Shown here in pieces: positions 18,001-33,000 of a DNA stretch of 64,000 bases (positions are counted from its first letter, which is position 1; each line of letters starts with the position of its first letter). The stretch lies in assembly GCF_057098645.1 (NCBI RefSeq), contig NZ_CM169472.1; one strand, written 5' to 3'. Made by a program: the position numbers.

Positions 18001-21000
18001 TACACCTCTAACACCTGGCCTGTCGGCGTAGAAATAGCAGGCGTGCGCCTTCTGATGAATCAGGATGGAACCATCAACGTGCAAAGCGGCGCGACGGAAA
18101 TCGGTCAGGGTGCCGATACCGTCTTCTCGCAAATGGTGGCAGAAACCGTGGGGGTTCCGGTCAGCGACGTTCGCGTTATTTCAACACAAGATACCGATGT
18201 TACGCCGTTCGATCCCGGCGCATTTGCCTCACGCCAGAGCTATGTTGCCGCGCCTGCGCTGCGCAGTGCAGCACTGTTATTAAAAGAGAAAATCATCGCT
18301 CACGCCGCAGTCATGCTACATCAGTCAGCGATGAATCTGACCCTGATAAAAGGCCATATCGTGCTGGTTGAGCGACCGGAAGAGCCGTTAATGTCGTTAA
18401 AAGATTTGGCGATGGACGCTTTCTACCACCCTGAACGCGGCGGGCAGCTCTCTGCTGAAAGCTCCATCAAAACCACCACTAACCCACCGGCGTTCGGCTG
18501 TACCTTTGTTGATCTGACGGTCGATATTGCGCTGTGCAAAGTCACCATCAACCGCATCCTCAACGTTCATGATTCGGGCCATATTCTTAATCCGCTACTG
18601 GCAGAAGGTCAGGTACACGGCGGAATGGGAATGGGCATTGGCTGGGCGCTATTTGAAGAAATGATCATCGATGCAAAAAGCGGCGTGGTCCGTAACCCCA
18701 ATCTGCTGGATTACAAAATGCCGACCATGCCGGATCTGCCACAACTGGAAAGCGCGTTCGTCGAAATCAATGAGCCGCAATCCGCATACGGACATAAGTC
18801 ACTGGGTGAGCCACCAATAATTCCTGTTGCCGCTGCTATTCGTAACGCGGTGAAGATGGCTACCGGTGTTGCAATCAATACACTGCCGCTGACGCCAAAA
18901 CGGTTATATGAAGAGTTCCATCTGGCAGGATTGATTTGAGGATAACATCATGTTTGATTTTGCTTCTTACCATCGCGCAGCAACCCTTGCCGATGCCATC
19001 AACCTGCTGGCTGACAACCCGCAGGCCAAACTGCTCGCCGGTGGCACTGACGTACTGATTCAGCTCCACCATCACAATGACCGTTATCGCCATATTGTTG
19101 ATATTCATAATCTGGCGGAGCTGCGGGGAATTACGCTGGCGGAAGATGGCTCGCTACGTATCGGCTCTGCAACGACATTTACCCAGCTAATAGAAGATCC
19201 TATAACTCAACGTCATCTCCCGGCGTTATGTGCTGCGGCCTCGTCCATTGCTGGACCGCAGATCCGTAACGTCGCTACCTACGGTGGAAATATTTGCAAC
19301 GGTGCCACCAGCGCAGATTCTGCCACGCCAACGCTCATTTATGACGCGAAACTGGAGATCCACTCCCCACGCAGTGTTCGTTTCGTCCCGATTAATGGCT
19401 TTCACACCGGGCCGGGCAAAGTGTCTCTTGAGCATGACGAAATCCTTGTCGCCTTTCATTTTCCACCCCAGCCGAAAGAACACGTGGGCAGCGCGCATTT
19501 TAAATATGCCATGCGCGACGCAATGGATATTTCAACGATTGGCTGTGCCGCACATTGCCGACTGGATAACGGCAATTTCAGCGAATTACGCCTGGCATTT
19601 GGTGTTGCCGCGCCAACGCCGATTCGCTGCCAACATGCCGAACAGACTGCACAAAATGCGCCATTAAACCTGCAAACGCTGGAAGCTATCAGCGAATCTG
19701 TCCTGCAAGATGTCGCCCCGCGTTCTTCATGGCGGGCCAGTAAAGAGTTTCGTCTGCATCTCATCCAGACGATGACCAAAAAAGTGATTAGCGAAGCCGT
19801 CGCCGCGGCGGGGGGAAAATTGCAATGAATCACAGCGAAACAATTACCATCGAATGCACCATTAACGGGATGCCTTTTCAGCTTCATGCCGCACCAGGCA
19901 CGCCGCTCTCGGAATTACTCCGCGAACAAGGACTGCTAAGTGTCAAACAAGGGTGCTGCGTGGGTGAATGTGGTGCCTGTACGGTGCTGGTCGACGGCAC
20001 AGCAATAGACAGTTGCTTATACCTTGCCGCCTGGGCTGAAGGAAAAGAGATCCGCACGCTTGAAGGTGAAGCGAAAGGCGGAAAACTTTCTCATGTTCAG
20101 CAGGCTTATGCGAAATCCGGCGCAGTGCAGTGCGGGTTTTGTACGCCTGGCCTGATTATGGCTACCACGGCAATGCTGGCGAAACCACGCGAGAAGCCAT
20201 TAACCATTACGGAAATTCGTCGCGGACTGGCGGGAAATCTTTGTCGCTGCACGGGGTATCAGATGATTGTAAATACAGTTCTGGATTGCGAGAAAACGAA
20301 GTAAAAGGATATCCGGCCTGAATTCAGGCCGGATTCGCTGAGGTTATGTGTTTAACAACTCATATTTCTTAATCTTGCGATAGAGCGTAGCAATGCCGAT
20401 GCCCAGTTCATCAGCAACTTGCTTCTTGCTGTTATGACGTGAAAGCGCCTCGCGGATCATTTGCTTTTCCATCTCCTCCAGCGCCGTGCCGCCCGCATCA
20501 TCGAGTGACAGGTGCGCCTCAGTGACCTCTGTTACATCACTTTGCTCCGTTGTGCCATTATTCAGCAGATTTGGCGGCAATAGCGTGCTGTCGATAACTT
20601 CACCTGAAGGAACAACGTTAACCAGATATTCCATCAAATTGCTTAACTCGCGCAGGTTTCCGGGCCAACGATGCTTACGCAATATTTCGACGACATCGGG
20701 AGCAATGCCAGGATAAACCGATCCCAGACGACGGGTATGCAGATGTAAAAAGTAATGCACCAGTAGTTCAATATCTTCCTGACGTTCACGCAGCGGTGGC
20801 AGAGTTATCGGGATAACATTAAGTCGGTAGAAGAGATCTTCGCGGAATTTACCTTCGGCAATGAACTGGGCCAAATTCTGGTTAGTTGCAGAAATGATGC
20901 GAATGTCGACTTGTATTGGGCTACTGGCACCAATCGGCAGAATTTCACGTGCCTCAATAGCGCGCAGTAATTTAGCCTGCAACATTAATGGCATATCACC

Positions 21001-30000: not shown

Positions 30001-33000
30001 GCAATGGGCTGTTCAATGAGTTTGTCGAGGGCTTCACGATCCTGATTATTCGTGGCAATCAGGACAAAATTATCAGGGCGAATATCCAGTGCTTCCACTG
30101 CCGCACCAAACGACTCAGCATGGAGAAGCGTGGTTGATGGTGGGAATAGTTCAGGATTGAGGCTTTCGCGATAAATATCAGCAACGGCAATATCAAATCC
30201 TAATAGTGCCGCACTCTGGGCTATCGCCCGGTTGACATGCCCCGCGCCAATCAACACCAGACGTGGACGCATACCATGGACGCTGATAAATACTGACATT
30301 GCACCTCCACAATCTGACCCGACAGCATCCGCACCGTTACGAGCCATACGTCCATGGAATAATCGCGGCTTACGTTCCTGCAATGCCTGAAGCGACTCTT
30401 CAATCACCTTCCGCTCAACCATTCCGCCACCAATTGTACCGACGATAGAACCATCGGCGCGCACTAACATTTGTGCAGAATGGCGGGGAGTCGAGCCTCG
30501 GCTATCAACAATTTGCGCCATCGCAAACGGACAATTTTGCTCTTCGAGTTTTGCAGCCTCTGTGAAAATATTCATACCAACCTCAATGGATATCCTTTCA
30601 GTAACCCGGAATACCCGGGCCGCTAATTCACAAATCTGCGCGCGATTGCAGGATGTTCTTGTATATCGCCCAGCCAGATTGCCTCTACGTCGTGTTGTTG
30701 CAGCGGTTGAAGGAGCTCGCTTTGCGCAATCGCATTCTCACATTGAGAAAAACGGTTAATGAACCAGACTCGCCGACAACCTTGCGGTACGTTTTTAAAC
30801 GCCCCCTGAGGGTGGCGAACCAGCGCAACGAGATCGCTCAGTTGCAAGGTTGCATCAGTTGTTAACCCGGTAATATCAGCAAACTGCGACCAGCGATGGA
30901 CATTTTCTGTGTTCACTTTCGCGCCCAAAATATGTCCTCCCATCACAGCAATCACGCAGCAACTGCTTTTGGGTATGCAAGGTTCGTGCTCATCAGGCGC
31001 TTTTAACGGCATTCCACGCGAGCCATCTGCTTCAATGAGAATTACGTCACACTCTGGTCGTTGCACCAGTGCATCAATCGCTTCTGGCGTAAATCCCTGC
31101 ACTTTTCCCTGGTTCGCTTTCCAGCTGTGAAAACAAAATGAAATGGGGGATGTAAGAGACGCATGAGGAAGCATGGCGGGATCACGACAGAAAACCACGG
31201 GCCAGTGAGACGTTGGCATAAACATATGTGTTGTCGTCGTGATTAACACACGCCTGCCGCTAGCCTGGAGCAGTTCTGCTAGCCAAAAAAGCAAGCTGGT
31301 TTTCCCCCCAGCACCAACAACAGAAATCACAGTGGGACGTTTCTGCGCACCTAAATCAATGAATAATGCCGATGGGTCAACTATACTTTTCACGAGTCTT
31401 TATGACCTCTCTGGGATAAATTACCCCCAACTTAATCCATCAGGAAGTAACGCAATTATCAGGCGTTATTAGCCCCTATAAATAATGGAACCACTATGTC
31501 AGCCATCGACTGTATAATTACCGCTGCCGGATTATCATCAAGAATGGGGCAATGGAAAATGATGTTACCCTGGCAACAGGGAACAATTCTTGATACAAGT
31601 ATCAAAAATGCGTTGCAGTTTTGTAGCCGAATTATTTTAGTCACCGGCTATCGTGGTAATGAACTGCACGAACGTTATGCGAACCAGAGCAATATCACTA
31701 TTATTCACAACCCAGATTATGCCCAGGGTTTACTAACATCAGTCAAGGCCGCAGTACCCGCAGTGCAAACAGAACATTGTTTTCTCACCCACGGTGACAT
31801 GCCAACCCTCACCATCGATATTTTCAGAAAAATCTGGTCGTTACGAAATGATGGCGCAATCCTGCCACTCCATAATGGCATCCCTGGCCATCCGATTTTA
31901 GTGTCAAAACCATGCCTGATGCAGGCAATCCAGCGACCCAATGTCACCAATATGCGTCAGGCACTCCTTATGGGAGATCATTATTTCGTCGAAATAGAAA
32001 ATGCAGAAATAATTTTAGATATTGATACTCCGGACGACTTTATTACAGCGAAGAAAAGGTATACTGAAATTTAGAAAACGTAGTTAAACGATTGCGTTCA
32101 AATATTTAACCCCTCCAGCACTCTTTATCATAATGATAAGGAATCACTAATTTTGAGAAAAGAGAAAAAGTGATAAATGGGCTGGCAATAATAATTTTCA
32201 GGAGTGATTTTAATTCTCATTTGGCACCTGTGAGTTCATTCACAAAAAGCCCTTAAGTTTCGAGCCGCCTCACATTTTTTTATATTTCCCGCCAAACCTG
32301 GCAAGAGTGGTGCGATTGTTGCTCTATCCCCCTAAACCACCGGATTTCTCAACACCGGTCACTCAATGATATCTGTATAAGCTAAGGAGAGGGTTATGGG
32401 GGATATTATGCGTCCCATTCCGTTTGAGGAACTTTTGACGCGCATATTTGATGAATACCAACAACAACGCTCAATCTTTGGTATTCCCGAGCAACAGTTT
32501 TACTCACCCGTAAAAGGTAAAACTGTTAGCGTCTTCGGTGAAACCTGTGCCACTCCCGTCGGCCCTGCCGCTGGCCCGCACACGCAGCTCGCGCAAAATA
32601 TTGTCACCTCCTGGCTGACTGGCGGACGCTTCATCGAACTAAAAACCGTCCAAATTCTTGACCGCCTGGAGCTGGAAAAGCCTTGTATCGATGCCGAAGA
32701 CGAGTGCTTTAACACCGAATGGTCTACCGAATTTACCCTGCTTAAAGCCTGGGATGAATACCTCAAAGCCTGGTTTGCCCTGCACCTTCTCGAAGCGATG
32801 TTCCAGCCTTCTGATTCCGGTAAATCGTTCATCTTTAATATGAGCGTCGGTTATAACCTCGAAGGTATTAAGCAACCGCCGATGCAACAGTTCATCGACA
32901 ATATGATGGATGCATCTGACCATCCGAAATTCGCGCAATATCGCGATACGCTGAATAAATTACTCCAGGATGACGCATTTTTATCCCGCCACGGATTGCA

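Follow-up and report, generated by a model that had tools for sequence, protein, structure and literature searches.

Sigma-54 promoters of the ygeW and ygfK operons of Escherichia coli and a candidate upstream site for the adjacent activator YgeV

A 64,000-nucleotide stretch of Escherichia coli DNA (contig NZ_CM169472.1 of NCBI RefSeq assembly GCF_057098645.1), called the window throughout, contains the ygeW and ygfK operons of the anaerobic uric acid and 2,8-dioxopurine degradation pathway and, next to ygeW, the divergent gene ygeV, which encodes an enhancer-binding protein. The locus raises the question of which sequences place these operons under sigma-54 and how YgeV might act on them. The operons account for anaerobic uric acid removal by gut bacteria, a process of medical interest for gout whose native regulation has been described as poorly understood. 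The motif upstream of ygeW and the downstream one of two overlapping motifs upstream of ygfK are real sigma-54 promoter elements. With considerable confidence, we propose in addition that YgeV acts on them from an upstream palindrome, together with CRP-like dyads, and that the cluster forms a single YgeV/sigma-54 regulon. Gene annotation was taken from strain RM9872; positions 20344–32396 are 100% identical to E. coli O145:H28 chromosomes. The features on which the argument turns are the following.

20344–22122, minus strand: ygeV (isrR), annotated gene of the sigma-54 enhancer-binding protein
22601–28729, plus strand: annotated ygeW-ygeX(dpaL)-ygeY-hyuA-yqeA(arcC) transcription unit, with intergenic gaps of 47–57 nt
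32396–40522, plus strand: annotated ygfK-ssnA-ygfM-xdhD transcription unit, with gaps of −4 to 50 nt
22492–22507, plus strand: −24/−12 element of PygeW, TGGCACACTTATTGTT, ending 94 nt before the annotated ygeW ATG (22601)
32308–32323, plus strand: downstream overlapping element of PygfK ('site B'), TGGTGCGATTGTTGCT, ending 73 nt before the ygfK ATG (32396)
32299–32314, plus strand: upstream overlapping match before ygfK ('site A'), TGGCAAGAGTGGTGCG

The original prediction placed three motifs at 22492–22507 and 32299–32323, and direct reading of the sequence confirms all of them. In each, the first G of the GG lies 12 nt from the G of the −12 element, as in TGGCAC-N5-TTGCW, and the GG-N10-GC/GT spacing is exact in the ygeW motif and in both ygfK motifs. 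In PygeW the TGGCAC is perfect and the −12 dinucleotide reads GT, not GC, as expected from the imperfect −12 element described earlier, and the downstream ygfK site carries GG and TTGCT with a non-consensus −24 element. From these positions, transcription is predicted to start near 22520 for PygeW and near 32334 for PygfK.

Sigma-54 binding at ygeW and ygfK has already been mapped experimentally in strain K-12, and the promoters themselves are not new. Among the sites found by chromatin immunoprecipitation with sequencing (ChIP-seq), Table 1 of Bonocora et al. 2015 (PLoS Genet, PMC4591121) includes OS29 (xdhA), OS30 (ygeW), OS31 (ygfK) and OS32 (ygfT). OS30 (CTGGCACACTTATTGTT, FAT 3, 80 nt to the gene) was not previously annotated, and OS31 (GTGGTGCGATTGTTGCT, FAT 26, 62 nt to the gene) had been predicted in EcoCyc. 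Both 17-mers are identical to the window sequence, so that sites, genes and predicted gene distances are the same in the two strains, with no sequence difference. YgeV, the upstream palindrome and the CRP sites fall outside the scope of that study. Results obtained by other approaches agree with the ChIP-seq data. Genomic SELEX (systematic evolution of ligands by exponential enrichment) with the RpoN holoenzyme gives an in vitro peak in the ygeV/ygeW spacer (Shimada 2021). In the microarrays of Zhao et al. 2010, overexpression of sigma-54 raised ygfK 2.1-fold and the rpoN-mutant column gives −2.4 for this gene; xdhA likewise responds to rpoN dosage, whereas for ygeW no such effect was found in the literature searched. 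The earlier proposal of sigma-54 control over the two operons is thus supported by ChIP-seq, SELEX, the rpoN-dosage effect, the co-variation of the operons as one YgeV iModulon (gene list given below) and, as shown below, the conservation of both promoters and of an upstream palindrome that they share. A 2025 survey of the sigma-54 regulon and a preprint on 2,8-dioxopurine contain nothing on the regulation of these genes.

The sigma-54 position weight matrix (PWM) scan that had been suggested as a check was run with a 17-column matrix built from 46 E. coli sigma-54 ChIP-seq sites, from which four sites of this cluster had been excluded. The ygeW site scores 15.66 bits, the best value in the window on either strand, followed by xdhA (14.16 bits) and the downstream ygfK site (12.46 bits); the ygeW and ygfK scores (15.7 and 12.5 bits) fall inside the training range of 7.9–20.2 bits. 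Matches of at least 12.46 bits are no more frequent than in Markov-1 random sequence (3 observed versus 5.7 ± 2.5, both strands), and match quality alone therefore cannot support sigma-54 promoters. The top three matches, however, all fall within promoter zones, defined as intergenic positions 30–200 nt before a start codon, which make up 2.4% of strand-specific positions; random placement of all three in such zones has a probability of 0.024^3, or about 1e-5. Support for the promoters comes from position, conservation and published binding data and not from the match count. The search for competing sigma-70 promoters turned up weak 9/12 matches only, at a frequency not above that in shuffled sequence.

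A scan of a genome collection with YgeW yielded 80 loci, of which 19 are gamma- or betaproteobacterial (Edwardsiella, Pluralibacter, Serratia, Enterobacter, Hafnia, Aeromonas, Kosakonia, Cedecea, Erwinia, Photobacterium, Endozoicomonas and a metagenome-assembled genome of the Rhodocyclaceae), and 46 from distant phyla were used as a control. TGGCA(C/T)-N5-TTG(T/A/G) is present before ygeW in 19/19 of the other gamma/beta loci, at 68–112 nt (231 nt in one), with scores of 13.4–17.1 bits in 18 of them and 8.9 bits in Endozoicomonas; a match of at least 12 bits within 400 nt 5′ of ygeW occurs in 1 of the 46 distant loci. Each of the 12 other species for which sequence of the ygfK region was available retains the downstream site, as TGG(T/C)G(T/C)(G/A)(A/G)TTGTTGCT or close variants (TGGCTC, TGGCCT), and none of them conserves the bases of the upstream motif. 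In the alignments of the two regions, A1 for ygeW and A2 for ygfK, mean identity is 51–54% and the promoter elements stand out as invariant blocks, TGG.G...TTGTTGCT being the one in A2. Strong purifying selection acts on both promoters, whose positions are fixed. In about 5170 of 5426 E. coli genomes, the spacers are 96–100% identical.

Conservation extends to the departure of PygeW from consensus. The base that follows the G of its −12 element (22506 in the window; 20 species were compared, of three orders plus a betaproteobacterium) is T in 11, A in seven, G in two and C in none, so that the non-canonical −12 is a conserved property and not decay, which suggests selection for a weakened −12 element. 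GT at −12 is also seen in the pspA and pspG promoters (−12 TTGTA; Table 1 of PMC4591121), which belong to the PspF regulon. The weak published ChIP signal at ygeW (FAT 3) is in keeping with a weakened −12.

How YgeV might act on these promoters is suggested by an inverted repeat. Allowing one arm mismatch, TATCA-N3-TGATA is the only 5-N(0–8)-5 inverted-repeat model found in all four 330-nt E. coli upstream regions, and shuffled sequences give 0.013 such models. Its generalized form, T[A/C]TCA-N3-TGA[T/G]A, has 5 exact matches in the window against 0.17 expected, and four of them lie beside sigma-54 sites. The copies that accompany PygeW and PygfK are these.

22278–22290: palindrome TATCAATATGAGA, candidate YgeV site for PygeW, centred 209 nt 5′ of the −24 GG
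22307–22319: degenerate second copy TATCAAACTGACG near PygeW, its TATCAnnnT invariant across 10 Enterobacterales
32126–32138: perfect palindrome TATCATAATGATA (context CTTTATCATAATGATAAGG), candidate YgeV site for PygfK, centred 177 nt 5′ of the GG

The PygeW palindrome TATCAATATGAGA is an invariant block of alignment A1, in which the invariance of TATCAAACTGACG corresponds to columns T198–A202 and T206; the PygfK palindrome TATCATAATGATA is likewise invariant in A2. Before ygeW, the palindrome occurs in 18/18 testable species, 150–230 nt 5′ of the sigma-54 site, and takes the symmetric form TCTCA…TGAGA in Cedecea sulfonylureivorans and Erwinia mallotivora. Before ygfK it occurs in 11/12 other species, 135–178 nt 5′ of the promoter. 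Over the 19 gamma/beta loci, 43 exact palindromes were counted in 388 kb, 29 of which have a sigma-54 match of at least 12 bits 80–330 nt downstream. The distant loci have six palindromes in 899 kb, and three of these are in a Desulfosporosinus locus (L052), which alone among the distant loci encodes a full-length homologue of YgeV (36% identity over residues 10–589); there, two TCTCA-N3-TGAGA copies lie 5′ of a 16.8-bit sigma-54 site.

The same module of promoter and palindrome recurs at xdhA, in yqeC (for yqeB) and at ygfT, sigma-54 sites that were absent from the original prediction.

16570–16586, plus strand: sigma-54 element of PxdhA, CTGGCGTAAATCTTGCC, 14.16 bits, ChIP-seq site OS29
16439–16451 and 16462–16474: near-palindromes TATCACATTGATT and ACTCATATTGATA before PxdhA, centred 127 and about 104 nt 5′ of the GG
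30976–30992, minus strand: yqeC-internal sigma-54 promoter for yqeB, TGAGCACGAACCTTGCA, 9.9 bits, site IS34 of Bonocora et al. 2015
30736–30748: exact palindrome TCTCACATTGAGA in yqeC, 240 nt 3′ of the promoter inside this gene; the yqeB start follows after about 165 nt
47314–47330, minus strand: weak sigma-54 site of PygfT, TATGCCCGTTTATTGCA, 5.8 bits, ChIP-seq site OS32 (FAT 3)
47496–47508: palindrome TCTCATATTGATA in the ygfT/uacT spacer, 174 nt 5′ of the ygfT GG

The published sequences of OS29, OS32 and IS34, too, are identical to the window. At the xdhA-like operons of two other loci, L017 and L018, a 16-bit sigma-54 site has an exact palindrome 136 nt 5′ of it. IS34 has been validated by promoter point mutation, quantitative reverse-transcription PCR and western blot (PMC4591121); orthologous yqeC-internal sites score 15–16 bits, and the same 240-nt offset between promoter and palindrome is found in L002, L004 and L014 (Edwardsiella and Serratia oryzae). 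The yqeC palindrome would then be an activator site located 3′ of its promoter, within a long 5′ untranslated region. The recurrence of the module suggests that the cluster is one YgeV/sigma-54 regulon.

A further palindrome, TATCATCTTGATA, lies inside ygeX/dpaL (24122–24134, 276 nt into the coding sequence), with no sigma-54-like site nearby; Kosakonia has the same sequence at the same ygeX position. This copy could reflect chance, coding constraint, a relic or an auxiliary site. In clostridia, dpaL has its own sigma-54 promoter with a predicted site for the activator DioR, introduced below.

The properties of YgeV fit the role of the activator. As the original prediction held, it is an enhancer-binding protein, with a Cys-rich N-terminal region, a PAS domain, an AAA+ domain bearing GAFTGA and a C-terminal HTH_8 domain. 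Pfam matches comprise Sigma54_activat (PF00158, E = 8e-71), the AAA lid, HTH_8 (E = 1e-13) and the PAS domain, and the translation shows a Walker A motif (GESGTGKE), GAFTGA, LFLDEIG and the C-terminal ELGIGIATLYRKIKKY. No Response_reg domain was matched by Pfam, although the protein was called an 'orphan response regulator' in the paper that describes it as IsrR. Residues 1–160 matched no Pfam or NCBIfam model; they hold a cysteine cluster (C40, C84, C87, C93 and C109; CEGCDSKENC) and are co-linear with the Desulfosporosinus homologue at 29% identity. This region is probably a conserved sensor of the regulon. NCBIfam has no equivalog model for YgeV, its best match, PrdR, covering only the AAA+ and helix-turn-helix (HTH) parts below cut-off. 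The HTH ELGIGIATLYRKIKKY is nearly invariant across 16 orthologues; the only substitutions seen in it, I to V or L, are those of the two species whose palindrome is of the TCTCA/TGAGA form. The pairing of a nearly invariant HTH with an invariant half-site was counted as a match that supports YgeV binding. The gene is the divergent neighbour of ygeW in 15 of the 19 gamma/beta loci and the only enhancer-binding protein gene in the cluster.

The palindrome was found de novo, and it matches sites predicted independently in another phylum. In their study of the sigma-54 regulons of Clostridiales, Nie et al. 2019 (BMC Genomics, PMC6615313) describe the activator DioR, of unknown function, with the targets dpaL-pyrC-argE, ygeW-ygfK-ssnA-ygeY, yqeC-ygfJ-yqeB-xdhC, xdhABC and pbuX. 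Among the predicted DioR sites in the supplementary table of that study are ATTTATCATAATGATAAGG (C. botulinum) and TATTATCATTTTGATAATA, as well as AATTCTCGAATTGAGAATA for C. difficile and C. ljungdahlii. At 18 of 19 bases, CTTTATCATAATGATAAGG, the copy before E. coli ygfK, is identical to the C. botulinum ygeW site ATTTATCATAATGATAAGG. This makes the palindrome a site of the DioR type, and the simplest reading of YgeV is as the orthologue of DioR; it is likely that the palindrome is a YgeV binding site, judging from these sequence comparisons.

The two regulons are alike in gene content (dpaL/ygeX, ygeW-ygfK-ssnA-ygeY, yqeC-ygfJ-yqeB-xdhC, xdhABC and a purine permease), in their −24/−12 promoter class and in having a predicted TTATCA-N3-TGATAA or TTCTCA-N3-TGAGAA about 100–240 nt upstream. 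In E. coli, an inverted repeat of this type stands 5′ of the sigma-54 promoter at ygeW, ygfK and ygfT, with near-matches at xdhA. They differ in phylum and operon order. Clostridia have two or three clear copies, whereas E. coli mostly has one strong copy with degenerate ones, and E. coli adds CRP-like sites and a non-consensus −24 (ygfK) or −12 (ygeW). Orthology of YgeV and DioR is drawn from the 36%-identical Desulfosporosinus homologue and not from the clostridial DioR proteins. No statement of a YgeV–DioR operator link for E. coli was found in an incomplete search of the literature mentioning ygeV.

Between the palindrome and each of the two promoters lie dyads that resemble CRP sites.

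22433–22448: CRP-like dyad TGTGATCAACCCCACA between the palindrome and PygeW, one mismatch, centred 52.5 nt 5′ of the GG (about −77.5)
32229–32244: consensus CRP site TGTGAGTTCATTCACA before PygfK, no mismatch, centred 72.5 nt 5′ of the GG (about −97.5)
32259–32274: half-CRP-like dyad TTCGAGCCGCCTCACA (TTCGA-N6-TCACA) before PygfK, centred 42.5 nt 5′ of the GG (about −67.5)

TGTGATCAACCCCACA is a conserved block of A1 that is found at 51.5–53.5 nt in 13 of 19 other species and at 42.5 nt in three. For TGTGAGTTCATTCACA, four other species have the position with no mismatch and two with one, while in TTCGAGCCGCCTCACA T..GA-N6-TCAC is invariant in A2 and located at 42.5–43.5 nt in all 13 species. 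The three centres (52.5, 72.5 and 42.5 nt) are 10 or 30 bp apart, in helical register, and held within 1 nt in most species. Matches of the TGTGA-N6-TCACA type number 5 in the window against 2.4 by chance, a count not above chance, and the left arm of the proximal ygfK dyad is poor. A native Crp site in the ygeV/ygeW spacer is mentioned in a recent preprint, in which the spacer site was replaced for constitutive expression (bioRxiv 10.1101/2025.05.19.654654). Putative CRP sites within a sigma-54 control region would offer a rationale for the glucose sensitivity that strain engineers circumvented by replacing the spacer. The consensus of integration host factor (IHF), WATCAANNNNTTR, has no match in any regulatory spacer, and a model of IHF-assisted looping was dropped on that account.

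These elements can be assembled into a model. Sigma-54 polymerase waits as a closed complex on PygeW and PygfK even under non-inducing conditions, as others have shown, and opening of the promoters would need the adjacent YgeV. A YgeV oligomer bound to T[A/C]TCA-N3-TGA[T/G]A, about 175–210 bp 5′ of the −24 element, would reach the polymerase by DNA looping and use its AAA+ domain, with the GAFTGA motif, to hydrolyse ATP, while a purine-related signal would be sensed by the PAS and N-terminal regions. The helically phased dyads at about −67.5, −77.5 and −97.5 would probably let CRP bend the DNA in the place of IHF, assisting the loop and imposing catabolite control. The cluster would then be the proteobacterial counterpart of the clostridial DioR regulon. 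The broader picture joins five statements: YgeV as the DioR orthologue; palindromes at five or six sigma-54 promoters (xdhA, ygeW, yqeC-internal, ygfK, ygfT and possibly uacT); an ancient cross-phylum regulon for anaerobic urate and purine use; enterobacterial use of CRP, not IHF, for looping; and a PygeW −12 that is deliberately non-consensus. We hold these jointly with moderate confidence. Such a joint picture is apparently not stated for E. coli in the literature searched.

Several points weigh against the model as a whole. ChIP enrichment at ygeW is weak, at a site with a non-canonical −12. The DioR and YgeV site assignments are both computational, and neither a footprint nor ChIP data for YgeV or DioR was found in the searched full-text papers that mention ygeV. 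At 175–235 bp from the start site, the palindrome stands at the far end of the usual range, and at yqeC it sits 3′ of its promoter. The proximal dyads match CRP poorly on one arm, so that another factor could bind them. The literature also yielded neither transcription start site data for ygeW or ygfK nor a test of their transcription in ygeV or rpoN mutants under anaerobic urate induction. The yqeC-internal promoter is induced by nitrogen limitation (PMC4591121), which hints at NtrC or another input and not at YgeV. Finally, the role of YgeV as IsrR, an indole-responsive virulence regulator linked to LEE (locus of enterocyte effacement) expression, is not explained by the model.

The last two points lend themselves to an alternative in which the sigma-54 sites are driven by another activator, such as NtrC, or by none, being poised or cryptic, and YgeV regulates something else, for example virulence. 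Bonocora et al. 2015 caution that a bound site need not be a working promoter (PMC4591121), and the YgeV iModulon of Lamoureux et al. 2023 (xdhABC, ygeWXY, hyuA, ygfK, ssnA, ygfM, xdhD, ygfT and uacT) is almost always inactive in 1035 RNA-seq samples. We nonetheless consider this alternative unlikely. The palindrome is present at every sigma-54 site of the cluster, does not resemble an NtrC site and tracks ygeV homologues across phyla; ygeV is the sole enhancer-binding protein gene of the cluster and syntenic with ygeW. Direct YgeV dependence of ygeW and ygfK is what we infer, the one experimental link found being at ygfT: as relayed by Lamoureux et al. 2023 from Iwadate & Kato 2019, its expression is reduced in a ygeV mutant, which is also reported to lose urate consumption.

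The palindrome might alternatively serve another transcription factor, Fur-like or a global regulator. Its TGATAAT half-site resembles half of a Fur box, and the exact copy in ygeX has no sigma-54 site nearby. We judge such an operator improbable. The orientation and spacing of the arms do not fit a Fur box, which has a 7-1-7 arrangement, and the motif tracks the ygeV/dioR homologue at a fixed distance 5′ of sigma-54 promoters in both Proteobacteria and Firmicutes. Moreover, the TCTCA/TGAGA variant is shared by some clostridia and the two proteobacteria whose local YgeV HTH diverges most. An FNR site was also considered and rejected as a general explanation, since a TTGAT-N4-ATCAC reading is possible for the copy at xdhA alone. 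Upstream of xdhA, TTGATACGTATCAC (16468–16481), which overlaps the second near-palindrome, resembles an FNR site in 9 of 10 bases (TTGAT-N4-ATCAA); this would be plausible for an anaerobic pathway and is not seen at other promoters of the cluster.

With YgeV retained as the likely ligand of the palindrome, the choice between the two overlapping ygfK motifs remains to be justified. The original prediction listed both, and both are present. The upstream motif TGGCAAGAGTGGTGCG has the better −24 half (TGGCA) and the right spacing, was the ygfK candidate of Zhao et al. 2010, and is intact in both divergent E. coli alleles compared. It could accordingly be the functional promoter or alternate with its neighbour. 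We find this very unlikely. Its −12 region lacks the TT of TTGC, and its score of 10.34 bits, against 12.46 for the downstream site, ranks 16th in the window and is within noise. MEME analysis of the ChIP-seq peaks assigned the downstream site (PMC4591121). The TGGCAAGAG bases of the upstream motif are kept in none of six aligned species, which have GAATAAC, AAATAAC, TTATAAC or AAGGAG at these positions, whereas the downstream site is invariant. Single-nucleotide polymorphisms of the most divergent E. coli alleles miss every motif, the upstream one included, and therefore do not discriminate between the two. The conservation of one site and not the other settles the question for 32308–32323, in agreement with the ChIP-seq motif call, and the match at 32299–32314 is probably fortuitous. 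That all these motifs are chance matches with no biological role, as the unremarkable PWM count might suggest, has a negligible probability and is already refuted by the published binding data, to which the SELEX and expression data, the placement and orientation of the sites and their deep conservation against a 2% control rate are added.

The layout of the locus has a relative in the prpR-prpBCDE system of E. coli and Salmonella, in which a divergent enhancer-binding protein gene adjoins a sigma-54 catabolic operon and cAMP-CRP acts positively in the shared spacer. The prp system senses through PrpR_N and uses IHF; the ygeV/ygeW arrangement is the same, with a putative sensor formed by the N-terminus and PAS domain of YgeV and no IHF consensus. 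What the present analysis adds is modest: a likely operator link between YgeV and DioR, a proposed architecture with CRP, and a −12 base of PygeW conserved as other than C. It tells which of the overlapping ygfK motifs to mutate, and it provides a testable candidate YgeV operator that is common to the clostridial DioR regulon.

The genes that surround these promoters are arranged in the window as follows.

16642–20304, plus strand: xdhABC
28950–31393, minus strand: yqeB-yqeC
31496–32074, plus strand: mocA/ygfJ
between xdhD and ygfS-ygfT: xanQ, guaD and ghxQ
44860–47267, minus strand: ygfS-ygfT
from 47703, plus strand: uacT

A terminator scan found a terminator-like hairpin 3′ of yqeA (28916–28941) and a GC hairpin 3′ of xdhD (40532–40547), which, together with the short intergenic gaps, fit the proposed ygeW and ygfK transcription units. 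Membership of the YgeV iModulon backs a unit of ygeW, ygeX, ygeY and hyuA and the ygfK-ssnA-ygfM-xdhD unit; yqeA is absent from its gene list.

A motif 69 nt 5′ of uacT, CTGGCACTCCACGAGCA (47618–47634, plus strand; 6.0 bits), combines a perfect TGGCAC with a GC at the right spacing but lacks the TT; the ygfT/uacT palindrome lies 118 nt 5′ of it. In Pluralibacter, CTGGCACCGGATAAGCA is found 58 nt 5′ of uacT, with a near-palindrome 153 nt further up. CTGGCACTCCACGAGCA is a possible sixth sigma-54 promoter of the cluster, and uacT belongs to the YgeV iModulon; the published ChIP-seq table holds no separate site at uacT (PMC4591121).

Two differences from strain RM9872 were seen elsewhere in the window. 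The urate/H+ symporter gene uacT contains a perfect 35-bp tandem duplication (GCTGTAACTACACCACCAACCGTTACAACCTCTAT twice, at 48850–48919), which shifts the reading frame so that it ends at 48950, before the normal stop. The duplication is absent from the otherwise identical RM9872 and from eight other sampled E. coli genomes (176 versus 211 nt); compared with RM9872, window coordinates past 48884 are shifted by +35. The duplication may reflect a genuine loss of function in this strain, within the same regulon, or it may be an artefact of the sequence. In addition, two 100%-identical inverted copies of a 1332-bp element, at 4451–5782 and 12890–14221, carry a gene for an IS3-family-like transposase, which has rve and HTH_21 domains. 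RM9872 lacks both copies at these positions, and flanking overlaps of 5–6 bp resemble target duplications. One copy interrupts the ETT2 type III secretion region near sctN and the other splits a glycoside hydrolase family 15 gene, the two bracketing about 7.1 kb of ETT2 genes.

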